Positions 5,208-43,036 of a stretch of 64,000 nt of DNA are shown in pieces (within the stretch, counting starts at the first letter, position 1; each line of letters opens with the position of its first letter). A program made the translations under genes and the position numbers. Under the pieces are notes generated by a model that ran no database searches, was not told the DNA's origin, and worked only from the letters and a program-made list of their open reading frames with translations. The stretch is from a virus (Duplodnaviria > Caudoviricetes), in the IMG/VR virus record IMGVR_UViG_3300011989_000011, positions 1-64,000 of that record. The stretch is one strand, 5' to 3'.

Positions 5208-5636
5208 ATGCCAAATCAGATTACGGGTACTATTTTAGAGATAGGTTCGCCTGTCAATGTTCCCACCAAAAGTGGAAACCCATTCACCAAACGGGTGTTG
5301 ATATTGGATGCTTCGACATTCGATCAGTTCACGGGAGAGAAAAGAGAAAACTACCCCTCTTTCACCTTCATGCAGAAACGAGTGGAGGAACTGAATAACT
5401 TCCAAGTAGGTCAGCGAGTAACGGTGTCATTCTTCATCAGTGGTAGAAAATGGGTAGACGAGAAGAATGGTGGAGAAGTCAAGTGGTTCAACGATGTTGT
5501 CGGTTACAAGATAGAGCCGTTTCAGCAGTATCAGAACTATAGCGCTCTGGCACCTCAGCCTCAGCAGGCCACGCAAGCCCCACCACCACCCATGCCACCG
5601 CAGCAGCCAAATAATGATGATGATCTGCCATTCTAA
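5208..5636 (+). CDS. DUF3127-family ssDNA-binding protein
   Basis: ITG.I...G...F.KR..IL OB-fold pattern, GRKW..KWFNDV and acidic DDDLPF tail. Confidence 0.8.
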   Translation: MPNQITGTILEIGSPVNVPTKSGNPFTKRVLILDASTFDQFTGEKRENYPSFTFMQKRVEELNNFQVGQRVTVSFFISGRKWVDEKNGGEVKWFNDVVGYKIEPFQQYQNYSALAPQPQQATQAPPPPMPPQQPNNDDDLPF

Positions 5637-5647
5637 AGAAGTAGGCT

Positions 5648-5872
5648 ATGTAAGAAAAGCTGACACAGAAAAAGGTTATCCTCGAGCACCTCCAAAGGTT
5701 CGGTTTCATAGAGCCGTTGACAGCACTCAGAGAATACGGGTGTTACCGACTGGGTGCGAGGATAGCCGACCTCAGAAGTGAGGGCTATCACATCATCACA
5801 GAGAACCAAACGGCATATAGCAAGATAACGGGTAAGCCCGTCAGATATGCCAAATACAAACTGATAGTATGA
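5648..5872 (+). pseudogene. HTH phage protein with a nonsense codon at position 2 (ATG TAA)
   Basis: After ATG-TAA the frame reads EKLTQKKVILEHLQRFGFIEPLTALREYGCYRLGARIADLRSEGYHIITE...YKL and ends in an ATGA overlap with the next gene. Confidence 0.8.
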
Positions 5873-6306
5873 TATTCAATCTCAATTCAGAATTTGAAAA
5901 GCAGAAGTTCAAGGAGTACTGCAATGAGCAATACAAGAAAGGCGGTATTGTTGAAGTGAAACGCAAGCATCGCCAACGCTCTACCTCGCAAAACTCCTAT
6001 CTTCACCTATTGTTGGGTTACTTCGCTTCGGAGTTCGGATATAGCTTAGAGGAGGTCAAATACGACATCTTCAAGAAGAAGGTCAATCCCGATATTTTCA
6101 AAGTCGAGAGAACGAATAAAAGAGGTCAGAAAGTAATAGCACTGCGCAGTACGAGAGACATTGACACGCTTGAAATGACAACAGCCATAGAGAGGTTCAG
6201 AAACTGGTCCTCAGCAACGTGCGGATTATATTTGCCAAGTCCAAATGAGCAAGAGGCTCTGATATATGCGCAGCAGCAAATGGAACAATACGAACAATAT
6301 TTATAA
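5869..6306 (+). CDS. NinB-like recombination protein
   Basis: RSTSQNSYLHLLLG motif and C-terminal STRDIDTLEMTTAIERFR. Confidence 0.65.
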   Translation: MIFNLNSEFEKQKFKEYCNEQYKKGGIVEVKRKHRQRSTSQNSYLHLLLGYFASEFGYSLEEVKYDIFKKKVNPDIFKVERTNKRGQKVIALRSTRDIDTLEMTTAIERFRNWSSATCGLYLPSPNEQEALIYAQQQMEQYEQYL

Positions 6307-33022: not shown

Positions 33023-33370
33023 ATGAAGTTAGTTACATCAGCAATCAAGAAAGAGCTTGCGAAATATCCACTGGGTTCACAAGATGGCAAGAATGGCGAT
33101 GCTAAGGCTATAGCACGCTTCTTCTTTCCTATGGGCTCATGGACGTGGTACGTTACTGAAGCCAACCTACAGACGGGTGAGGCGTTCGGAGTAACGATAA
33201 ATGGTTCGGGCGAGGGTGAGTATGGTTACTTCAATCTGAACGAACTGCAATCTCTCAGAGTCAGAGGTTTGGGTGTTGAGCGAGACATCTGCTTCACTCC
33301 TACCAAGCTGAAAGACATCAAAGACGAGTATCTACAGAAGAAACTTAAAAGTATGGGTTATGTTGCTTAA
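33023..33370 (+). CDS. DUF2958-family protein
   Basis: RFFFPMGSWTWYVTE..FGV..EGEYGYFNLNEL. Confidence 0.8.
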   Translation: MKLVTSAIKKELAKYPLGSQDGKNGDAKAIARFFFPMGSWTWYVTEANLQTGEAFGVTINGSGEGEYGYFNLNELQSLRVRGLGVERDICFTPTKLKDIKDEYLQKKLKSMGYVA

Positions 33371-33698
33371 CAATAGAGATATGGTGAAGTTGCTCCAAGC
33401 AAACGAGTACATCATTAAGCAGAATGAAGGTGATGAGTATAAGAACTATGTAGTTGCAGACAAAGGCTCTATCAGTCTTCGATTCCAATGGAGCACGGAG
33501 CCGGGCCAGCAGTTCTCATCTATCAGCGTTAGTGCTGCAAGAAGAGGATTGAAGAATATGCTTACACTCCAATGTATTGGAACATTGAAGAATCTGACGG
33601 CATCCAATCAGTGGATATGCGACTACAAAGGTATCGTTAAACTTCTAAAAGCGGTAGACATCATGACTTCCGCTTATGACAAGTTAAGAACGCTATGA
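33360..33698 (+). CDS. Hypothetical protein
   Basis: 112-aa ORF. Confidence 0.55.
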   Translation: MLLNNRDMVKLLQANEYIIKQNEGDEYKNYVVADKGSISLRFQWSTEPGQQFSSISVSAARRGLKNMLTLQCIGTLKNLTASNQWICDYKGIVKLLKAVDIMTSAYDKLRTL

Positions 33699-34153
33699 AT
33701 AATGAAGAATACATAATGTTATGCGAGAAGTTGCAGCGAGGCTCTAAGAACCACGCTTATTGGCAGAAAGTCGTCAGAAATCAGAAAGACGTTCCTATCA
33801 GAAGCGTGTGGCAAGCCTTGCCACTTCCCATGATGTCAAAGTTATTAGGTAACATCAGACCAAAGAAGAAAGAGTGCTACAAGAACGCCCTTTTGGTCGC
33901 TCAATATCTCCACTGCGATTACGTTGAAGGGTATGTGAATATAGGTGGTCTACCTATAGAGCACGCATTCAATAAGATGAACGGTAGCTATTTTGATGTC
34001 ACGTTAGAATTGGCTTTAGGAGATAAGGTTGATAAATACGAGTACACATCAATAATGGAGCTTGATAGGGAGCGTGTCTTGGATATTGCAAGCGAGTTAG
34101 AGCTATACGGCCCGTATGCAAGTTATGTATATTCTAAACACATAAAGCTATGA
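33695..34153 (+). CDS. Transglutaminase/papain-like fold protein
   Basis: ECYKNA..YVEGY..IEHAFN..YFDVT (Cys-His-Asp). Confidence 0.6.
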   Translation: MNNEEYIMLCEKLQRGSKNHAYWQKVVRNQKDVPIRSVWQALPLPMMSKLLGNIRPKKKECYKNALLVAQYLHCDYVEGYVNIGGLPIEHAFNKMNGSYFDVTLELALGDKVDKYEYTSIMELDRERVLDIASELELYGPYASYVYSKHIKL

Positions 34154-34575
34154 ATGGATCAGAAGCATTTGAAGCTACGATTGGCGAGTATCTGAAAGTC
34201 AGAGCCAACACAGACGAGAAGTTTGCAGAGGAAATGAAAAAGGAAGGCAAGTCCGTTCATGAGTGCTGCAACTATATCCTCAACATGGTTAAGAAGTCCG
34301 GCTGCTGCGGATTCGATGATGATGAGATTTTCAGCTTGGCAGTTCACTACTACGATGAGGACATCACTGATAAAGCCTTGCTGAAAGAAATCAGAGGTTC
34401 GGTAGTCGTCAATCACAAGGTGGAGCTAAAGGAAGAAGATAAGGAGTCTATCGAGGAGCAAGCCAAGAAAGACTATTATCAAGAGTGCATGAGAAAACAA
34501 CGTGAAGCTAACCATCCTAAACCTAAGAAGAAGGTAGAGGTGCAGACGCCGGACTTATTTGGAGGATTGTCATGA
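34150..34575 (+). CDS. PcfK-like protein (family includes AcrIIA9-like anti-CRISPRs)
   Basis: TIGEYLKVRANTDEKFA..KSVHECCNYIL..KKSGCCGFDDDEIFSLAVHYYDE. Confidence 0.85.
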   Translation: MNGSEAFEATIGEYLKVRANTDEKFAEEMKKEGKSVHECCNYILNMVKKSGCCGFDDDEIFSLAVHYYDEDITDKALLKEIRGSVVVNHKVELKEEDKESIEEQAKKDYYQECMRKQREANHPKPKKKVEVQTPDLFGGLS

Positions 34576-35876
34576 AAGCAAGAACAAAGGTAGAAAAGGA
34601 GGTGATGGAGCTAAGCTCCACCCTCCCTAATCTGAGAAAGGATTCAACGAGATATTCCAAGAAGTCGTTCTATAGGATGAAGTTTACCACTGGCCGTAAG
34701 TCATGGTGTTCTGAATGTGGGCATGAGTTCGAGGATAAAGGTCAGAGTTCATGCCCTCACTGCCATTGCCATTTCGATCAGACGGAGCAGACAAGAAAGA
34801 AGACTGACCTCCACAATAGAGCCTACTTTGTTATCCTTGACACAAGGAATGAATGGCAGGTAATGCGCTATTTCAGAGTAGACAAGGAAAGTACAGCCGG
34901 AAAGCGAGCCAAGTTCTATAACTGGGAGGTTATGCAGCTATGGTTCACCAAAGGTCATTATGAAGTGATAGCGAGAAAGAGAAGTTTGGGGTTCTACATT
35001 GATACATTCTCCTATTGGTCTGATATGGAAATCAGAATCCCACGTATCAGCAGCAACGGCCCGCTTACGATTGAGGATATCCCATACGCATACGTTGAGA
35101 AGAAAAGCGTGCTGCCACAACTGCAAAGGTTTGAGGAAGACATCGAGCAAGAGAAATGCAAAGGATTCTATCGGAATGAGTTCTACAAGGTCTTGCTCGC
35201 ACACCCAATGGCTGAGACATTGTTGAAGCAAGGTCACGAAGGTCTTCTGAGACAGATGTTAGATTACGGTATGATGAGGAAGGAATACTTTGATGCGGTG
35301 AAGATCGCCCTAAGAAACCACTACGATATATTCAGCCAAGACACCACCATGTGGCTTGATATGGTCGAAGCCCTAATCTATCTAAGGAAGGATGTTCACA
35401 ACGCATTTTATGTATGTCCTAAGGATCTACAGAAGTCTCATGACAGATGGATTAAACTCGCTGAAAGAAAACGCAAGGAAGCCTATGATAAGGCTGCTGA
35501 GAAACGTAAGCTGAACATCCTCAAACGAGACAAGAAGATAGCTGAGAACTACGAGAAGTCGCACATGAAGTTTCTTGGCTTCAAGTTGGATGATGGTACC
35601 GTTGTTATCAAGGTTCTGCCTACGGTTGAAGCCTTCAAGGAAGAAGCCGATGAAATGCACCACTGCGTTTTTGCTAATGGCTATTACAAGAAGCCGAATA
35701 GCCTTATCATGTCGGCAAGGGTCGAGGGTAAACGCCAAGAGACTGTAGAGGTCAATCTGAGAGACTTCACATTGGTACAGTCGAGAGGTCACTGCAACCA
35801 ACCCTCACCTTACCATGACGAGATAGTTAAGTTGGTTGAATCACACATGAAAGAAATCAAGAAGGTGGCATTATAG
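34572..35876 (+). CDS. PcfJ-like protein
   Basis: ETLLK.G..MWLDMV..LRKD..CP.DL..HD..EE...MHHCVF..YY.K..SLIMSA..QSRG..N. Confidence 0.88.
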   Translation: MKARTKVEKEVMELSSTLPNLRKDSTRYSKKSFYRMKFTTGRKSWCSECGHEFEDKGQSSCPHCHCHFDQTEQTRKKTDLHNRAYFVILDTRNEWQVMRYFRVDKESTAGKRAKFYNWEVMQLWFTKGHYEVIARKRSLGFYIDTFSYWSDMEIRIPRISSNGPLTIEDIPYAYVEKKSVLPQLQRFEEDIEQEKCKGFYRNEFYKVLLAHPMAETLLKQGHEGLLRQMLDYGMMRKEYFDAVKIALRNHYDIFSQDTTMWLDMVEALIYLRKDVHNAFYVCPKDLQKSHDRWIKLAERKRKEAYDKAAEKRKLNILKRDKKIAENYEKSHMKFLGFKLDDGTVVIKVLPTVEAFKEEADEMHHCVFANGYYKKPNSLIMSARVEGKRQETVEVNLRDFTLVQSRGHCNQPSPYHDEIVKLVESHMKEIKKVAL

Positions 35877-35968
35877 TTAAATATTGTGAAGAATAGGCAC
35901 TTTTAGGAATAAAAGTGCTTGTTTTTCAAATATTATTGCTACCTTTACATTGTTAAAAGGGCAATATA

Positions 35969-36370
35969 ATGAAAGTTTACACAAGTTATTTCGCAAACGG
36001 CAAGAAGTTGCATGAAGCCGGAATCATGATGATCGGCATTGCACTTTTCCCACCGAAATGGTTTTATGGGGTGTCGTTGCAGCAAGTAGCTCCTACCAAT
36101 TCAATCCTTCACGAGGATACGGAAGAAAGGTACGTTGAGCGGTTTAAGAATGAGGTCTTGGCAAAGGTTGACCCCAAAGAGTTCATTGAAAACGTGATGA
36201 CATTCAGCAAGGGCAAAGATGTTGCTCTATGCTGCTTTGAAAAGCCGGGTGATTTCTGCCATAGGCATTTGGTTGCCGATTGGCTGAATGAAAAGTTAGG
36301 CTTGGGGGTCGAGGAATTTGGTGTTAAGGTTTCGAAGAATCCTCATTACACCGAAGGAAGCCTATTTTAA
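35969..36370 (+). CDS. DUF488-like protein
   Basis: MKVYTSYFAN..VAP..VALCCFEKPGDFCHRHLVADWL. Confidence 0.8.
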   Translation: MKVYTSYFANGKKLHEAGIMMIGIALFPPKWFYGVSLQQVAPTNSILHEDTEERYVERFKNEVLAKVDPKEFIENVMTFSKGKDVALCCFEKPGDFCHRHLVADWLNEKLGLGVEEFGVKVSKNPHYTEGSLF

Positions 36371-36437
36371 GCTTATTACGATTCCACATAAATGGCAAAG
36401 CGGAAAGACGCTTGACAGAAGGACAGACTTCTTCAAT

Positions 36438-36509
36438 GCGTGTGTGGTCTATCGGTTAGGACGCTGCACTTCTAGTACGGAAAGATAGGTTCGACTCCTT
36501 TCACACGCT
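36438..36509 (+). tRNA. Degenerate tRNA, anticodon UCU (Arg), with a Glu-like D-arm
   Basis: GCGTGTG/CACACGC acceptor; GTCT ATCGGTT AGGAC; CTGCA CTTCTAG TACGG; ATAGG TTCGACT CCTTT; one mismatch in each of two stems. Confidence 0.6.
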
Positions 36510-36516
36510 CTAATTT

Positions 36517-36589
36517 GCGTGGATAGCTCAGTTAGTAGAGCGGTGTTCCTCCAGAACGCAGGTCGTTGGTGCGGGTCCAACTCCACGCT
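36517..36589 (+). tRNA. tRNA-Gly(UCC)
   Basis: GCGTGGA/TCCACGC acceptor; GCTC/GAGC D-stem; GTGTT CCTCCAG AACGC; GTTGG/CCAAC T-stem; U73 discriminator; atypical C33 and T-loop. Confidence 0.7.
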
Positions 36590-36682
36590 CATGAGCTCAA
36601 TATGATACGATTAAAAGATTAGAACGGGTTATCTGAAAGACGTTTGAGAGGCGTGTAATGTAAGAGACCTGTTCTTTATTAT

Positions 36683-36801
36683 CTCCGAGTTAGTTCAAAG
36701 CGCTATGCTCGCAATCGGTAACACGAGGGTCGGTAGCAGAGGTGTGGTAGAATAACCCCAACACGTGAGGGGCGATGGTGGTTCGAATCCCCATTCGGAG
36801 G
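36683..36801 (+). ncRNA. tRNA-like element with a ~45-nt insertion in the D-loop
   Basis: CTCCGAG/TTCGGAG acceptor; GTTC..AGAAT D-stem split by an inserted hairpin; CCCC/GGGG arm; GG TTCGAAT CCCC T-arm. Confidence 0.4.
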
Positions 36802-36811
36802 CTATTAAGGA

Positions 36812-37537
36812 ATGTTGCCAATGATAGATGTTTTTAGTCCCGATTGCTTGTTTCCGACAGACAACAATTTGGAGATACCCGAATTGAGGTCGGATATGCA
36901 AGCTGAGTTCTGCGAGATACCTTTTGTGTGTTTCGGAGAAACGGCAAGGACATATCAGATGAAAGGCACGGGAACACTCCATTTCTACACTGATGATTAT
37001 AGGTTCAATAGTCTGTACGACCATCCCGATAAGATATTGCGGATGGACCCGTCAAACATCGTTGAGCCTAATTACAGCGTTTTCACTGACACACCTATCG
37101 CATTTGGCTTGCAAGCTATCTACAGAAAACGTTGGATAGCGAGGATGATGCAAGAACATGGTATAAGAGTCTTCGTTGATCTGAATGTCGCTCCTAAGTA
37201 TTACCAAGTCAATCTGTACGGAGTGCCACAAGGTTGGCGCAGTTTCTGCACGAGAGGTTCTGAAGACAGAATGAGCCAACTTGACAACGAGTTCAACCTT
37301 GCAAAAATGCGTAGGGGCGGTGATGATATCTTATTCGTTTGCTATGGTGGTGGCGAGAAATGTCGGGAATGGTGCCAAGTTCATCATGCCGTATATGTCA
37401 ATCCTCTCATCAACTACAAGAATAGTATTAAGCAGAAGAAAGAACTCTATAGGCAAGGTGTTTTCTTCTTTCAAGATGATATACCCGTAAAGACTGTAGA
37501 AAAGAAACAAGTTTACGACTATGCAGACCGACTTTGA
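36812..37537 (+). CDS. DUF4417-family protein
   Basis: LHFYTDDYRF..EPNYSVF..IYRKRWIA..G. Confidence 0.8.
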   Translation: MLPMIDVFSPDCLFPTDNNLEIPELRSDMQAEFCEIPFVCFGETARTYQMKGTGTLHFYTDDYRFNSLYDHPDKILRMDPSNIVEPNYSVFTDTPIAFGLQAIYRKRWIARMMQEHGIRVFVDLNVAPKYYQVNLYGVPQGWRSFCTRGSEDRMSQLDNEFNLAKMRRGGDDILFVCYGGGEKCREWCQVHHAVYVNPLINYKNSIKQKKELYRQGVFFFQDDIPVKTVEKKQVYDYADRL

Positions 37538-39590
37538 ACGTACTTTTGGAATTGAGATAGAAATGTGCAATGTAGACAGAGGGAAGATTTCTCTGCCTAA
37601 TGGCTATTCGTGGTCTAAAGACGAAAGTATATTCAATACGGATGGCAAATCAAGCAAACATTTTGGTGGAGAGATAAATACTCCTCCACTCCACTTATGT
37701 CAGAGAGATAGGAAAGACTTGCGTGACATCTATTCAGACTTGAAAGACAACGGAGGAAAAATAAAATGGAGCATTGATACCCATGTTCACATCTATGCAG
37801 GTGACCTTACGTTGGATCAGTTGAAGAATATCTTCTATCTTCTTTATTGGGATTACAAATTTGTCAAGAGGTATTGCCATATTGCCGATTGGGATGAAAT
37901 GGTCTTTAACGCTCAGCCACTTCCAACGGAAAACAAATATGATTTGGTAAAGAGAGCTGCTTCGTTATTTGATTTGGAGCATGCTTTTACCAATCAATCC
38001 AAGAAGAGTTATCTCAGATTAGCAATCAATATAGCTTCTTATTTTGTAAGGAAGACTATAGAGTTCAGATGCTTCCATGCTACAGATAATTTTGAACTTG
38101 TTGAGAATTGTGTAATAGCTTCATATAGAATGTTCAACTTTGCAGTTACTCATACCGAAGACGAAATTAAATCCATATCTTCTTATGATGAATTTTGCGC
38201 AAAGTTAAAGCTACATAGAGAAACGCCTCCAACTCTCACTCCGTTGATTTATCAAGGCAACCCATATAGTAGCATAGAGACGTTTATGACGAACTCTCTT
38301 CCCTACAACTCTAAGCAAGCATCATTGCTATACGAAGCTATCCAAAAGAATAAGCATACGGATATATGCGTTGTCAATGGTTTCATGTATTATTACGAGC
38401 TATTCCTATTGGATAAGATAAATGTGTCTATCTATTGCCAAGACGCTTATTGTTATCTGCTCTATCTGATAGCCAACGGAAAAGTTTGCCTTACATACAA
38501 GGATCGCCTTGAATGGTTGGAGGATTACAATGATAAATCGGTTAAGAGCCAGCTTGCCCTTGCTCTGTATGCTTCAAGCCTACAGAAGTTTCTTATGAGC
38601 AAGAGTTCTCGAAACGATGCAATCATAGAATCGCTTAAAATCAAGGCAAAAGAGTCTATTGAGAAGATAAAGATATCGAATGATAGACTTCTTCGATTGC
38701 TCACCACATGCGAGTTTAAGGTTGGGACCTTGCAAGATGCTATCAAAGACAAGCAGGTCATATTTTTCAACTACGGAGAAGATAAGAAGCAGAAGCGCAC
38801 ATTCAAACTCATCCAAGAGTGCAGTGATTTGGATTTGAACTTTGACCTAAAGCGTAATGATTATTACGACTTAGTAGAGAGCCTTCCGCAATCATCTTAC
38901 TTCTACTATTTCAGCAATAGTCCGTTTCTGAGCAATATGCACAAGCTCGCTATGATAAAATCATCGAATGGCGATAGGCGTTCTGCAGGCCGTTTCCTCT
39001 ATTGCAATAAGCCCACACCCGTCAATGATGTCTGCACATCATACAAGGAGTCGTTTGTCGATGTCAACGAGATAGTTCCGCCGGATGATTTGGTTATTGA
39101 CGACCCTAAAAAATTGAAGATTGCCAAATGCAATTCAAGCTATCTCTATTGCTTGCAGAAGAAGTATATCAAGAAAGTTGATATGGTAAGCAGGTGCACC
39201 TATGCTTTCGTTGTCATGTATGACAAGTACACACTCGGAGGTTTTGGATTCACCCTACCTCAGCATAAAGGCTATGATCTGTTTCAGTTGACAGATTTCT
39301 GCACCAACAATGAGATACCACGTCTGAGTAAACTGATATTGGTTTGCATCCAATCGGTAAGGGTTCAGATGGAGTTAAGCAGACGTATGCACAAACTATG
39401 TGAGAAGGTTATTTCATGTGCCTATACCCATAAGCCTGTAAGCATGAAGTACAGAGGTATCTACAAGAAAGTGAAGGAACACTGCACATCATCTTACCTT
39501 GCCTACGAAGGTGTTCTTGGGCAGTATGCAGATAACAAGGCTATCATTGCTAAATATCAAAATCTTTGTAAGAATGGGAACAGAAGATAG
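37521..39590 (+). CDS. Fusion: COOH-NH2 amidoligase domain, degenerate methyltransferase-like region and GNAT/Mom-like C-terminus
   Basis: TFGIEIE, GEINTP, THVHI, KTIEFR (amidoligase ExE/E/HxH/EFR); C-terminal GGFGF..LTDF..PRLSKL..SMKYRG; the last two domain calls are from memory. Confidence 0.7.
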   Translation: MQTDFERTFGIEIEMCNVDRGKISLPNGYSWSKDESIFNTDGKSSKHFGGEINTPPLHLCQRDRKDLRDIYSDLKDNGGKIKWSIDTHVHIYAGDLTLDQLKNIFYLLYWDYKFVKRYCHIADWDEMVFNAQPLPTENKYDLVKRAASLFDLEHAFTNQSKKSYLRLAINIASYFVRKTIEFRCFHATDNFELVENCVIASYRMFNFAVTHTEDEIKSISSYDEFCAKLKLHRETPPTLTPLIYQGNPYSSIETFMTNSLPYNSKQASLLYEAIQKNKHTDICVVNGFMYYYELFLLDKINVSIYCQDAYCYLLYLIANGKVCLTYKDRLEWLEDYNDKSVKSQLALALYASSLQKFLMSKSSRNDAIIESLKIKAKESIEKIKISNDRLLRLLTTCEFKVGTLQDAIKDKQVIFFNYGEDKKQKRTFKLIQECSDLDLNFDLKRNDYYDLVESLPQSSYFYYFSNSPFLSNMHKLAMIKSSNGDRRSAGRFLYCNKPTPVNDVCTSYKESFVDVNEIVPPDDLVIDDPKKLKIAKCNSSYLYCLQKKYIKKVDMVSRCTYAFVVMYDKYTLGGFGFTLPQHKGYDLFQLTDFCTNNEIPRLSKLILVCIQSVRVQMELSRRMHKLCEKVISCAYTHKPVSMKYRGIYKKVKEHCTSSYLAYEGVLGQYADNKAIIAKYQNLCKNGNRR

Positions 39591-40302
39591 ATGGAAATAT
39601 GCCAAGGTCGATATTAATCTTATCGACAATGCAGAGTTGAACGCCAACGAAATGACTGATGAAGATTACGCTCAGTTGCGTGACAACATCAGTAAGTCCG
39701 GCCTTAGCAGTGTGCCTGCTTGCTATAAGAAAGCTAATGGTCGCTATGTGATGATTAGCGGTCACCATAGGTTGGCAGCGTGCAAGGAACTCCACTACAA
39801 GACTATTGGCATTTTGTGGTGTTGGGAGAGTGAAATGACCCAAGACGAGATTATCGCTACGCAGCTATCCCATAACTCGCTTCACGGCCATGACAATCAG
39901 AGCATCTTGAAGAAGTTGTTTGAGCAAATCCATTCAGTAGACTACAAGCAGTTTGCCCACGTAAACATGGATGAGATAAAACCTGTCAGCACGGATGGTA
40001 TTAGTGTCTTCGCCATGAAAGAGAATTTCGTCTTCACGGTTATCCTCTACCCCGATTCATTCGAGAGTTTGGATGAGTTGTTTGGAGACATCAGAGAGCA
40101 AGCAAAGAAAAGCGATGCCCTTATCCTTGCAAGTGAGGAGGACAATGAAAAGAACCTCCTTAAACTGCAAACGGAGATAGGCAAGGAGTATGATATCAAA
40201 TCTCCAAGCATCACATTCGCCAAGTTGTTGGAGTTGGCAAAGGAACGTTTAATCGAATTAAGAGACAAGAAAGATGATTTGGATAATAATGACAAAAAGT
40301 GA
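39574..40302 (+). CDS. ParB/Srx N-terminal-domain protein
   Basis: LNANEM..LRDNISKSG..P..MISGHHRLAACKEL; ATG at 39574. Confidence 0.85.
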   Translation: MGTEDRWKYAKVDINLIDNAELNANEMTDEDYAQLRDNISKSGLSSVPACYKKANGRYVMISGHHRLAACKELHYKTIGILWCWESEMTQDEIIATQLSHNSLHGHDNQSILKKLFEQIHSVDYKQFAHVNMDEIKPVSTDGISVFAMKENFVFTVILYPDSFESLDELFGDIREQAKKSDALILASEEDNEKNLLKLQTEIGKEYDIKSPSITFAKLLELAKERLIELRDKKDDLDNNDKK

Positions 40303-41152
40303 TAAGGAGACTTACATCCTCCCTCACAAAGCAATACAGATAACAGAAGCTCTTGGGAAGAATAATCTGAAAGTCGTTTCAGTAAATAATGGTAACGAGG
40401 TTTATATGCTCGGTATCAAGAAAGATGATATTGTTATCTCAGAGACACGTAACGAAGGGGTCAATTTTGCTATTACTGAGATTTGCCGAGCTAACACTGT
40501 AGAAAGTAAAGAGACTATTCGCTTAACTAAGGATAAAGAGGCTGTTAAGCCTCTGCTTGCTGATGCTAACATACCTTATCCAAAATCTTATAGATACGAT
40601 GAAGCAGAGGAAGGACATTGTTATTTCGTCAAGCCGAAGTTTGGTGAAGATAGCAATATGATAGATGAAAGTTCGATCTGCCATAATGCTCGAGAAGTCC
40701 GCATAAAGTATCGTAAGTTAGTATCAGCAGGATGTAAGCCTATAATAGAAGACTACATTTACGGAGACGATTATACTGTAGCAGTAGCCAAATGCAATGA
40801 TTTGTTATGCTTTCCTATCAAGGTAAATCTTCTGCATAGCTCCATAATGACACATAAGGCCAAGTGGGATGAAGATGAGTTCTGCGAAGTTCCAGATTGT
40901 GGCGAGTTCGAAGAATTGAAACGATTAACTGCAAAGGCTTTCGATGCCGTTGGATGTAAACATTACATGAGGATAGATTTTCGCAAGGGTAATGATGGTA
41001 AGTTCTATCTGATAGACCTCAATCTGTTCCCCGGTCTTGGTCCAACAGACCATTTTGCAAAGTGTTTAGCTCTCAATGGCGATTTGAGCTACAAGCAGAT
41101 ATTGAATACTATTATATACACTACGGGAGGAAATCTATATGGGTTGCGTTAA
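40274..41152 (+). CDS. ATP-grasp ligase (D-Ala-D-Ala ligase-like)
   Basis: FVKPKFGEDS, IIEDYIYG, RIDFR, DLNLFPGL. Confidence 0.88.
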   Translation: MIWIIMTKSDKETYILPHKAIQITEALGKNNLKVVSVNNGNEVYMLGIKKDDIVISETRNEGVNFAITEICRANTVESKETIRLTKDKEAVKPLLADANIPYPKSYRYDEAEEGHCYFVKPKFGEDSNMIDESSICHNAREVRIKYRKLVSAGCKPIIEDYIYGDDYTVAVAKCNDLLCFPIKVNLLHSSIMTHKAKWDEDEFCEVPDCGEFEELKRLTAKAFDAVGCKHYMRIDFRKGNDGKFYLIDLNLFPGLGPTDHFAKCLALNGDLSYKQILNTIIYTTGGNLYGLR

Positions 41153-41498
41153 CAGAACAAAGAAAATCACCAACGAGGAGATTGCCACAATGTACGAGAA
41201 GAAAGGTGGCAATGTCTCAGCTACGTGTACTGCCTTGGGAATGGATCGCAAAACATTCTATAACCGCAAGGAGAAGAATAAAGCACTCAGAGACAAGATT
41301 AACGAGACGGATGAGAGCCTTATCGACTTTGCGGAGTCAAAGCTGATGGAACACATCAATGATGGCGATGTAACATCACTGATATTCTTCCTAAAGACCA
41401 AAGGTAAGAAACGTGGATATGTTGAAAGGGTCGAGAACGAGATTAGTGGAAACGCTTTCGAGAACCTTATGAAAGAGGTTACGGGTGAGGATAGTTAA
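41139..41498 (+). CDS. Terminase small subunit-like HTH protein
   Basis: GNVSATCTALGMDRKTFYN..DFAESKL..IFFLKTKGKKRGYVER; directly upstream of TerL. Confidence 0.8.
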   Translation: MGCVNRTKKITNEEIATMYEKKGGNVSATCTALGMDRKTFYNRKEKNKALRDKINETDESLIDFAESKLMEHINDGDVTSLIFFLKTKGKKRGYVERVENEISGNAFENLMKEVTGEDS

Positions 41499-41521: not shown

Positions 41522-43036
41522 ATGTCGAGCGTAGCAGTAAAGAACAAAATGCGTGAATGGCGTAATGATTGGAATCTGTTTATCAAGGAGGTCCTAAAGG
41601 CTGACCTTGACAAGGAGCAGAAAGCTATTGTTGATGCCGTTCAGCATAATAAGATGGTAGCAGTAGCTTCGGGAACCGCACGGGGAAAAGACTTCGTAGC
41701 GGCTTGCTGTGCTATGTGCTTTCTCTATCTCACTCCTACATTCGACAAGGAAGGTAATTTGGTAGGCAATACCAAGGTTGCCATGACAGCCCCAACAGAT
41801 CGACAGGTGGGTAACATCATGGTGCCGGAGATTCGAAGACTTTTCAAGCACGCAAAGGTACTGCCCGGCCGTTTCGTTGCTCATGACATAAGAACTGATT
41901 ACGAAGAATGGTTCTTGACGGGTTTCAAGGCAGGTGATGATAACACTGAGGCATGGTCGGGTTTCCATGCAGTGAACACCATGTTCGTAGTAACGGAGGC
42001 ATCGGGTATCAGTGAGACGGTGTACAATGCTATCGAAGGTAACTTGCAAGGTAACTCACGAATATTGTTAGTATTCAACCCTAACATCAATATGGGTTAC
42101 GCTGCAAGGGCAATGACACAAGCACGTTTCAAGCATTTCAGACTTAACTCCCTCGATGCGGAGAATGTCGTGGAGAAGCGTATCGTGCACCCCGGCCAAG
42201 TAGACTATGACTGGGTGAAAGATAAGGTTGAGAACTGGTGTGAGCCTATCCAACAATCAGACTTCGATGAAGGGTTGGGAGATTTTACTTGGGAGGGTAA
42301 GACCTATCGCCCTAATGATCTGTTTCGTGTCAAGGTGTTGGGATTGTTCCCGAAGGTCAGCGAAGACGTACTCATCCCCTACGAATGGATCGAGCGTGCC
42401 AACCTACGATGGAAGCAAAAGGTCGAAAGCGGTTACAAGCCAAGGACACAAGCACTCGTTGGTATGGATGTGGCAGGTATGGGTAGAGATTCATCAGTTC
42501 TCTGTCCACGCTATCGTAACTTTGTTTCCAAGTTCGATGTTCATCAGTCGGGAGGTAAGGCAGACCACATGCACGTAGCCGGAATGGGTGCCAACTATCT
42601 CCGTGCTCACAAGAAGACGTTGTTGTTCATTGATACCATAGGCGAGGGTGCAGGTGTCTACTCACGATTGGAAGAGTTAGGATTCGATGAAAGAATATAC
42701 TCAGCCAAGAATAGTGAGAGTGCTAAGGGTCTTCACGATGTCACGGGAGAATACACCTTTGCTAACATGAGGGCTTATCTGATGTGGTGTGTTAGGGATT
42801 GGCTCAACCCTAAGAACGGCTTCAACGCTTGCCTCCCACCATGCGATCAGTTTGCAGAGGAAGCCACATCTACCAAGTGGAAGTTCCTCAGTAGTGGTAG
42901 TATCATCATAGAGCCAAAGGAAGATATTAAGGCAAAGATAGGTCGCTCGCCGGACTATATGGATGCGTTGGCTTACACGTTCTATCCTAACTACAATAAT
43001 TTGGATGCGAAAGCCATTTTGAATAAAGTGTTATAG
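41522..43036 (+). CDS. terL: Terminase large subunit
   Basis: SGTARGKD Walker A, VVTEASG Walker B-like, GMDVAGMGRD and RSPDYMDA nuclease motifs. Confidence 0.92.
   Translation: MSSVAVKNKMREWRNDWNLFIKEVLKADLDKEQKAIVDAVQHNKMVAVASGTARGKDFVAACCAMCFLYLTPTFDKEGNLVGNTKVAMTAPTDRQVGNIMVPEIRRLFKHAKVLPGRFVAHDIRTDYEEWFLTGFKAGDDNTEAWSGFHAVNTMFVVTEASGISETVYNAIEGNLQGNSRILLVFNPNINMGYAARAMTQARFKHFRLNSLDAENVVEKRIVHPGQVDYDWVKDKVENWCEPIQQSDFDEGLGDFTWEGKTYRPNDLFRVKVLGLFPKVSEDVLIPYEWIERANLRWKQKVESGYKPRTQALVGMDVAGMGRDSSVLCPRYRNFVSKFDVHQSGGKADHMHVAGMGANYLRAHKKTLLFIDTIGEGAGVYSRLEELGFDERIYSAKNSESAKGLHDVTGEYTFANMRAYLMWCVRDWLNPKNGFNACLPPCDQFAEEATSTKWKFLSSGSIIIEPKEDIKAKIGRSPDYMDALAYTFYPNYNNLDAKAILNKVL

Follow-up and report, generated by a model that had tools for sequence, protein, structure and literature searches.

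The closest described counterpart of the system considered here is the Mom enzyme of bacteriophage Mu. Mom is a GNAT that has been shown by experiment to transfer glycine from Gly-tRNAGly to the N6 position of deoxyadenosine (dA) in double-stranded DNA; by a rearrangement on the base, the N6-glycyl intermediate is subsequently converted into N6-carbamoylmethyl-dA (Silva et al., Nat Commun 2026, PMC13219725). Until now, Mom has been the sole example of an enzyme that puts an amino acid from a charged tRNA on DNA. A second point of reference is provided by the thymidine hypermodification clusters of phages, which have amidoligase and amidotransferase genes as uncharacterised neighbours (Lee et al., NAR 2021, PMC8989533). 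The subject of the present work is a compact operon of about 5.2 kb (35969-41152) in the window, that is, the whole 64 kb stretch that was analysed, which constitutes the first 64 kb of the 76,251-bp IMG/VR virus record IMGVR_UViG_3300011989_000011, rated 98% complete. The phage carrying it is of the gut Bacteroidales type. On balance we favour, with moderate confidence, the view that the operon carries out a tRNA-dependent glycylation of phage DNA, which would be extended by a fused amidoligase and an ATP-grasp ligase. This would amount to a tRNA-dependent aminoacylation of DNA of the Mom type that is carried out by another GNAT family, is supplied by private tRNAs and is extended by ligases.

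The central gene of the operon, at 37521-39590, encodes a protein of 689 amino acids (phrog_2443, 6.5e-197) in which three domains are fused:

37521-38237, + strand: N-terminal amidoligase domain of the fusion, residues 1-239 (PF12224, Amidoligase_2, 5.6e-11; 43.2 bits against a cut-off of 22)
38295-39014, + strand: middle Dam-like Rossmann domain, residues 259-498 (PF22556, DAM-like-phage2, 3.2e-89)
39096-39590, + strand: C-terminal GNAT-phage-like domain, residues 526-689 (PF22559, 7.9e-40; 136.8 bits against a cut-off of 27)

All of the best 120 of 770 fusion homologues share this set of three Pfam domains. A search of the fusion against the PDB sequences with phmmer gave nothing useful. 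The protein was modelled with AlphaFold2 on 26 homologues, with a mean predicted local distance difference test score of 88.6, and the model was used for structural comparison.

The best fold matches of the amidoligase domain (residues 5-239) are 1tt4 and 1r8g (YbdK), with a Z score of 11.3 and a root-mean-square deviation (rmsd) of 3.5 over 206-208 aligned residues. As modelled, the domain has a glutamine-synthetase-like carboxylate-amine ligase fold. Residues E12, E14, E51, H90, R166, E181 and R183 are invariant or nearly so among the 26 homologues, and these acidic and basic side chains would bind the metal and ATP.

The middle domain (residues 260-498) superimposes on E. coli Dam (4rtn_A) with a Z score of 10.4 and an rmsd of 3.2 over 173 aligned residues. 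Neither the glycine-rich S-adenosylmethionine loop (FxGxG) nor the (D/N/S)PP(Y/F) motif (DPPY) is conserved in the 26 homologues, which makes methylation unlikely, and in the sister domain DAM-like-phage1 the pattern [DNS]PP[YFWH] was found in 0 of 64 sequences. The domain is thus probably not a methylase; it could instead bind DNA and hold a flipped base. In some proteins of the DAM-like-phage1 plus GNAT kind, an HNH or a large insertion is located within the methylase-like domain (P0198; L091:2302-4110).

For the C-terminal domain (residues 526-668) the best GNAT structure is Mu Mom itself (8bv8_A; Z 10.9, rmsd 3.0, 134 aligned residues, 10% identity). Residues G573, D592, S641, K643, Y644, R645, G646 and Y662 are invariant, and the family is characterised by the invariant signature SDF ... 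RLSKL ... PVSMKYRG. The loop between strand 4 and helix 3, which in this domain reads RLSKL, does not have the glycine-rich Q/R-x-x-G-x-G/A motif for the pyrophosphate of coenzyme A (CoA). We propose that this GNAT-phage-like domain is the glycyl transferase. One homologue of 873 amino acids (P0147) has an extra N-terminal Acetyltransf_3 domain in front of the amidoligase.

The earlier note on this DNA had read two amide-bond ligase folds, an amidoligase and an ATP-grasp, from the open reading frames (ORFs), and had placed methylase-like and Mom/GNAT-like folds together in the fusion. All of these are borne out by the profile and structural matches, and the C-terminal region of 37521-39590, when compared domain by domain, does carry the GNAT and Dam-like folds.

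We now turn to the tRNA genes, of which there are two in the operon:

36438-36510, + strand: tRNA gene 1, anticodon UCU, canonical elbow (ARAGORN; Rfam tRNA, 46.4 bits)
36517-36590, + strand: tRNA-Gly(UCC) gene, non-canonical elbow (ARAGORN; Rfam, 47.4 bits)

The second of these has the D-loop AGUUAGUA, without G18, and the T-loop UGCGGGU, with G55 and G58, and the same odd-elbow class is seen again in most related loci. The loss of GG18-19 is associated with G55 (Fisher p 1e-7, a value that is not a true probability since the sequences are related). Tandem gene 1 is Arg by its anticodon and otherwise tRNA-Gly-like: it keeps G1-C72, C2-G71, G3-C70 and U73, and since the 99%-identical locus L071 has UCC where the window has UCU, it can be regarded as a tRNA-Gly paralogue with a C36-to-U change. 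Because C36 is an identity base of glycyl-tRNA synthetase (GlyRS), this tRNA may be poorly charged, decaying or repurposed.

The link to glycine extends over the whole family. Across 249 loci with the GNAT-phage-like family, 183 of the 213 tRNAs found are tRNA-Gly, and they closely precede the enzyme gene on its own strand, both in viral contigs and in prophages of Bacteroidota, Bacillota and Chloroflexota. At the loci from bacterial genomes, every tRNA assigned near the GNAT is a tRNA-Gly, those in Bacillota and Chloroflexota included. The sequence analysis was performed on 64 unique tRNA-Gly. The GCG start is present in 62 of them, U73 in 63, and C35-C36 in all except tRNA 1 of the window; these are classical identity elements of bacterial GlyRS. 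Positions 4-7 of the acceptor stem vary with full compensation, which indicates that the tRNAs are functional RNAs. GG18-19 or the canonical T-loop is missing in 40 of the 64, and at the wobble position 21 have A, 15 have C, 25 have U and 2 have G. ACC is not a normal bacterial anticodon. GCC is almost never carried, even though GGT and GGC make up 66% of the phage's glycine codons. As far as can be judged from the sequences, this is the pattern expected if glycine charging matters and decoding does not. Codon supplementation was considered as the reason for the tRNAs and, from the anticodons, the codon usage and the elbows, is unlikely.

A few further observations concern the same spot. A minority of the close relatives has tRNAs for Asn, Met, Lys, Ile, Ser or Arg there, alone or with tRNA-Gly (L003, L004, L008, L019 and L043-L045, at about 5300-5900 in each), and the spot is thus also a general tRNA island in some lineages. 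At the tRNA-Gly position of L177, L178, L179, L103, L130, L043 and L045, ARAGORN calls tRNA-like genes whose anticodons have two letters only (ac, tc, cc); their anticodon loops are of odd size and some have no readable anticodon. In the window, the 220-bp spacer between tRNA 2 and the DUF4417 gene (36591-36811) contains the canonical T-loop string GGTTCGAATCC (36778-36790). A third tRNA around this string was considered and dropped: neither ARAGORN nor Rfam (E up to 1) finds more than the two tRNAs, and the stretch does not fold better than shuffled sequence (z 0.06). The string may be a tRNA remnant of the rearrangement that brought DUF4417 here.

The remaining protein genes of the operon, together with the terminase genes that follow, are:

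35969-36370, + strand: DUF488-N3a gene, 133 amino acids, first of the unit (PF22751, 2.7e-11; 44.2 bits against a cut-off of 27; phrog_2450, 7e-38)
36812-37537, + strand: DUF4417 gene, 241 amino acids (PF14386, 8.7e-33; 113.8 bits against a cut-off of 28.9)
39574-40302, + strand: ParB/Srx-like gene, 242 amino acids from ATG 39574 (phrog_7405, 1.4e-72; ParB-like PHROGs at about 1e-10, 1.4e-10)
40274-41152, + strand: Ddl-like ATP-grasp ligase gene, 292 amino acids (PF07478, Dala_Dala_lig_C, 7.8e-14; 52.1 bits against a cut-off of 24)
41139-41498, + strand: terS, small terminase subunit gene (phrog_309, 1.6e-09), overlapping the ATP-grasp gene
41522-43036, + strand: terL, large terminase subunit gene (phrog_2, 3.5e-31)

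The genes DUF4417, fusion, ParB-like, ATP-grasp and terS overlap by 17, 17, 29 and 14 nt in this order. The four overlapping genes that the earlier note had described as running into terS are therefore all present at their positions and on the + strand. The limits it had set for the module, 36812-41498, proved too narrow: the DUF488-N3a gene (35969-36370) and the two tRNAs (36438-36590) upstream were omitted, and with the tRNAs the probable acyl donor was left out. Its inclusion of DUF4417 as a part of the module did not hold up either, as shown by the following comparison.

The close set consists of 80 related viral contigs, in which the fusion has an identity of 60-99%. The fusion, the ParB-like gene and the ATP-grasp gene occur together in all 80 loci and terS in 79, and the arrangement is hence not due to chance. 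DUF488 lies upstream of the fusion in 77 of the 80, and one or two tRNA-Gly come right after it in 74. DUF4417 is present in 53 and absent in 27, and its usual place is between terS and terL; with this incidence and a shifting position, it is a movable accessory rather than a core component. In the largest sister clade, the spot of DUF4417 is taken by an opine/octopine-dehydrogenase-like gene (PF02317, 1.7e-28; L014:5920-6987), which is located between the tRNA-Gly pair and the fusion gene. Since enzymes of the opine-dehydrogenase family couple amines and keto acids reductively, the finishing step in that clade may be a different one.

More distant loci were also considered. Homologues with 23-38% identity keep the order DUF488-N3a, fusion, ParB-like, terminase, and one of their loci has the same tRNA-Gly pair. 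There is also a simpler architecture of the GNAT-phage-like domain, namely DAM-like-phage1 plus GNAT. A scan of viral contigs with P0190 as the sole query returned no matches, and an alignment query was used instead. The resulting 88 diverse loci comprise 80 diverse viral loci of the simpler kind and the distant homologues. A ParB-like homologue follows the GNAT gene in 83 of the 88, DUF488 is detected by BLASTP in at least 40, and 26 of the 80 viral loci have a tRNA-Gly directly before the enzyme gene. In each of 10 distant loci that were sampled, a TerL of phrog_38, 979, 675 or 2 follows the ParB-like gene at a distance of about 0.6-1.7 kb. With terminases of at least four PHROG families downstream, the link to packaging is not merely the shared ancestry of one lineage. 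Over the 249 loci, from several phyla, the constant core is an enzyme with DAM-like and GNAT-phage-like domains followed by one ParB-like family, just upstream of terminases; the GNAT-phage-like enzyme thus has the ParB-like gene as its constant partner. Among bacterial genomes, the complete fusion of three domains is found in prophages of Bacteroidota, such as Prevotella (67-68% identity), Alistipes, Muribaculaceae, Capnocytophaga and others, with one further match in a metagenome-assembled genome (MAG) that bears the label Clostridia. By itself, the GNAT domain occurs in many phyla.

The mechanism that we propose on the basis of these results is the following. The host GlyRS would charge the phage tRNA-Gly, which have kept their charging determinants while many look poorly suited to the ribosome. 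The GNAT-phage-like domain would then move the glycine from Gly-tRNA to double-stranded DNA, where an exocyclic amine of a flipped base would accept it, most likely N6 of adenine, as for Mu Mom. The fused Dam-like domain, being catalytically degenerate, would provide the DNA binding and the base pocket, and the dedicated ParB/Srx-like partner could load or target the enzyme on DNA. Next, the fused amidoligase and the Ddl-like ATP-grasp would add one or two units through ATP-dependent amide bonds. In one possible route, the glycyl alpha-amine is acylated before the Mom-type rearrangement, and the fusion of amidoligase and transferase would let the unstable glycyl amine be captured before it rearranges. 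This would result in a larger adduct of amino-acid or peptide-like character, which may protect the packaged DNA from host nucleases. As to the biological setting, we think it somewhat more probable than otherwise that the operon is late and packaging-linked and that it decorates the phage's own DNA.

Several lines of evidence speak for this. Mom as the best GNAT match, the tRNA-Gly linkage, the Dam-like fusion and the terminase-linked position together suggest chemistry of the Mom kind in another protein family. The conserved catalytic residues in the amidoligase and in the ATP-grasp count in favour of both ligases acting. The ATP-grasp has the D-Ala-D-Ala ligases as its nearest solved relatives (E 5.1e-09), and K120, R233-x-D235 and D248-x-N250-x-x-P-G are conserved in 55 sequences; the match to Ddl covers the C-terminal half only, and the N-terminal Ddl domain is not reported in the profile and PDB matches. 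Its identity in the close loci is 29-48%, except for the near-identical L071 (99%), compared to 70-79% for the ParB-like protein. It is the most divergent of the set, and such fast evolution would suit a changing substrate choice. All accessory genes of the relatives have to do with amino acids or amines, in agreement with an adduct that is derived from amino acids and varies; besides the opine-dehydrogenase-like gene and the extra acetyltransferase domain described above, a gamma-glutamyl cyclotransferase is annotated two ORFs from phrog_2443 amidoligase genes in an accessory-gene table of Clostridium prophages (PMC11318856). Finally, no thymidylate-synthase-like (hydroxymethylase-like) gene and no TGT/DpdA gene was found in the 98%-complete phage genome, which makes a pyrimidine-C5 or deazaguanine route unlikely and fits a direct post-replicative modification of a canonical base. 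The stepwise building of an aminoacyl or peptidyl adduct on a DNA base, put forward in the earlier note, thus stands as the best-supported reading, with the nature of the adduct and the target base as its conjectural parts.

One can speculate one step further. It is possible, although we would give it rather less than an even chance, that the private tRNA-Gly have been freed from decoding and serve only as glycine donors for DNA, and that the ligases build a short non-ribosomal peptide-like chain on the base, such as N6-glycyl-dA extended in a gamma-glutamyl or opine manner. Hypermodified DNA of this class would be chemically unprecedented.

It is important to point out that a number of results weigh against DNA glycylation with ligase extension. 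Ordinary acetyl-CoA GNATs match the C-terminal domain with Z scores of 9.5-10.0, the best of them less than one Z below Mom, and the fold match is with this margin a lead and not a proof of a tRNA donor. At the sequence level, the GNAT of the window matches PF22559 only, while Mu Mom matches PF25680 (2.4e-75), with no cross-match. In PHROGs, Mom falls in phrog_1384 and the window domain in phrog_2443 and phrog_7858; hhalign gives a probability of 0.2% for the GNAT-domain profile against Mu Mom, and the same profile has no match among the PDB sequences. By sequence, the GNAT-phage-like domain is not a member of the Mom family. The essential residues R111, S124, D149 and R151 of Mom and its helix-turn-helix (HTH)-like insertion 175-209 could not be mapped onto the domain. 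The Mom chain has 222 residues, of which only 134 align; the family has its own invariant set in D592, S641, K643, Y644 and R645. Furthermore, there is no tRNA-Gly nearby in 54 of the 80 diverse viral loci and in 66 of 80 genome loci, and family members without a nearby tRNA would, like Mom, need one from the host. That DNA is the target is deduced from three features only, the Dam-like fold, the ParB-like partner and the terminase-adjacent position, and for the two ligases both order and substrates are conjectural. The DUF488-N3a protein, with its phosphatase-like fold, and DUF4417 also fall outside every step of the proposed mechanism.

In one alternative, the DNA ends generated by packaging are the target. 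Here, DUF488, the ParB-like protein and the GNAT and ligases would process or cap the terminase-made ends, for instance against exonucleases. DUF488-clade enzymes were, reportedly in work by Burroughs and Aravind from 2023, predicted to process DNA ends in virus-host conflict systems, and the location of the module directly upstream of terminases of at least four families would be well accounted for. The DUF488-N3a fold is weakly similar to the dual-specificity phosphatases and RapZ-C (Z 4-6.4); all of these matches are below a Z score of 8, however, while the Dam-like domain matches an enzyme that flips internal adenines, and Mom, the closest characterised GNAT, also modifies internal adenines. 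We therefore consider end processing to be improbable, although it survives best among the alternatives.

Another scenario has a packaging, head or host protein, or a peptide, as the acceptor, such that a GNAT of the Fem or L/F-transferase type adds glycine from the tRNA and the ligases extend the tag. Gene pairs of amidoligase and ATP-grasp are said to have been first predicted, by Iyer et al. in 2009, to make peptide modifications. Most known aminoacyl-tRNA-dependent GNATs do act on peptides, lipids or proteins (PMC13219725). However, both architectures of the family join a Dam-like DNA-enzyme fold to the GNAT, the pairing with the ParB-like gene described above holds for nearly all diverse loci, and no candidate substrate gene travels with the module, all of which renders a protein target unlikely.

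An equally unlikely option is that the donor is an acyl-CoA and that the tRNAs are ordinary translation tRNAs that merely lie in an intergenic spot. The small Z-score difference between Mom and the acetyl-CoA GNATs and the lack of a tRNA at most distant loci are in line with this, as are the tRNAs for Asn, Met, Lys, Ser or Arg that take this position in a few close relatives and the canonical elbow in one tRNA of each pair. Ordinary translation tRNAs would, however, hardly be expected to be so predominantly Gly in several phyla, to be dominated by ACC and CCC anticodons with GCC for the commonest codons nearly absent, or to have a degenerate elbow in the majority of cases, and the RLSKL loop without the pyrophosphate-binding motif speaks against CoA. 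Finally, that the GNAT acts on the charged tRNA-Gly itself in the manner of the TacT/AtaT toxins, shutting off or reprogramming translation with the phage tRNAs as decoys or replacements, is very improbable, because although Gly-tRNAGly-acetylating GNAT toxins exist (TacT; cited in PMC13219725) and the tRNA-Gly linkage fits equally, it leaves the Dam-like domain, the ParB-like partner, the two ligases and the fixed terminase-side position unexplained.

Some additional characteristics of the partner genes should be given. The ParB-like ORF opens at TTG 39499, and ATG 39574 is the likely start. The Pfam ParB_N match is weak (16.3 bits, under the cut-off of 26.3), and G63, H65 and R66 (GxxR region) as well as S99, H100 and N101 are invariant. 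The protein matches phrog_940 at positions 7-121 and DUF4417 matches it at positions 162-368, from which it follows that ParB-DUF4417 fusions exist; such fusions are also found in bioRxiv 10.1101/2025.10.10.680097. This fusion to ParB domains elsewhere is the only hint to the function of DUF4417. In DUF488-N3a, C89, C97, H98 and R99, which form the C...CHR motif of the 'active' subclade, and W105 are invariant, with the C/C/H/R found in 18 sequences. Searches of DUF488 and DUF4417 against the PDB sequences with phmmer gave nothing useful, and in the ESM Atlas the two returned the same DUF names only.

The transcription unit seems to begin with the DUF488-N3a gene, in front of which the following feature was located by a hairpin scan and by reading of the sequence:

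35897-35947, + strand: terminator-like hairpin, then TACCTTTA (35940-35947), after the PcfJ-like gene

TACCTTTA is a near-match to the Bacteroidota -7 promoter element TAnnTTTG, and this position is the probable start of the operon, with a putative promoter role for the element. Immediately upstream of the unit, the window has one or more PcfJ-like genes (33023-35876); relatives instead have DpnD/PcfM-like and DUF2958 genes there (L014:3938-5173). The PcfJ-, DpnD/PcfM-like and DUF2958 families are typical of conjugative elements. A blastn search of the region against 50,697 phage records gave no match, and a tblastn search of the fusion protein against the same records gave fragments only.

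Concerning novelty, the component families are already in Pfam and PHROGs, and parts of the module were probably predicted computationally, reportedly by Burroughs and Aravind in 2023. In the literature searched, which did not include that work, no paper was found that links the GNAT-phage-like family to tRNA-Gly or that characterises it. If DNA glycylation by this family is true, the chemistry would be widespread, with a second, sequence-unrelated GNAT family performing it across many phyla, and phages would have evolved dedicated tRNAs for DNA aminoacylation, which would explain some of the odd tRNA genes in phage genomes. The glycyl group would be the starting point for longer adducts made by two types of ligases, providing new DNA chemistry and new DNA-labelling tools. 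It would also account for a possible resistance of some abundant gut Bacteroidales phages to restriction and to sequencing chemistries.

We end with a comparison to the known systems. The FemXAB proteins of Staphylococcus aureus are GNAT-fold transferases fed by non-proteinogenic tRNA-Gly in which the GlyRS identity is kept and the D and T loops are altered, and the tRNA-Gly of the window family likewise keep the GlyRS elements with altered loops. The differences are that the Fem target is the peptidoglycan lipid II and that the tRNAs are cellular. FemX is absent among the top structural matches of the fusion model, which is not evidence against a kinship. The thymidine hypermodification clusters are similar in that phage clusters build amino-acid-derived adducts after replication (PMC8989533), but they start from 5-hydroxymethyldeoxyuridine and use a DNA kinase and aGPT-Pplase, while the genome of the window has no hydroxymethylase-like gene. 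The two ligases recall the logic of glutathione-type synthesis, in which a GshA-like ligase of the glutamine-synthetase fold and an ATP-grasp, GshB or Ddl, form two amide bonds in series; this is an analogy only, and the substrates in the window would be DNA-tethered.

Closer are the DAM-like-phage1 plus GNAT-phage-like enzymes (about 430-600 amino acids, phrog_7858), which share the PF22559 GNAT and the ParB-like family with the window and whose loci, like the window, have DUF488 and tRNA-Gly upstream and a terminase downstream. They represent the simpler form, without the amidoligase, usually without the ATP-grasp, and with a methylase-like domain of another Pfam family; the window contains the extended form, whose prophage copies were found only in Bacteroidota, bar the one MAG labelled Clostridia. 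With Mu Mom, finally, the enzyme of the window has in common the GNAT fold, with Mom scoring highest against the C-terminal domain (Z 10.9), a phage-encoded and late-expressed nature, the presumed purpose of protection against restriction, and the link to tRNA-Gly, which is experimental for Mom and a gene linkage here. Mom is a single small enzyme that uses a host tRNA and an HTH-like insertion for the DNA, whereas the GNAT of the window is fused to the Dam-like and amidoligase domains and is accompanied by the ParB-like protein, the ATP-grasp, its own tRNA-Gly, DUF488 and the tie to the terminase, and its product is expected to be larger than N6-carbamoylmethyl-dA.

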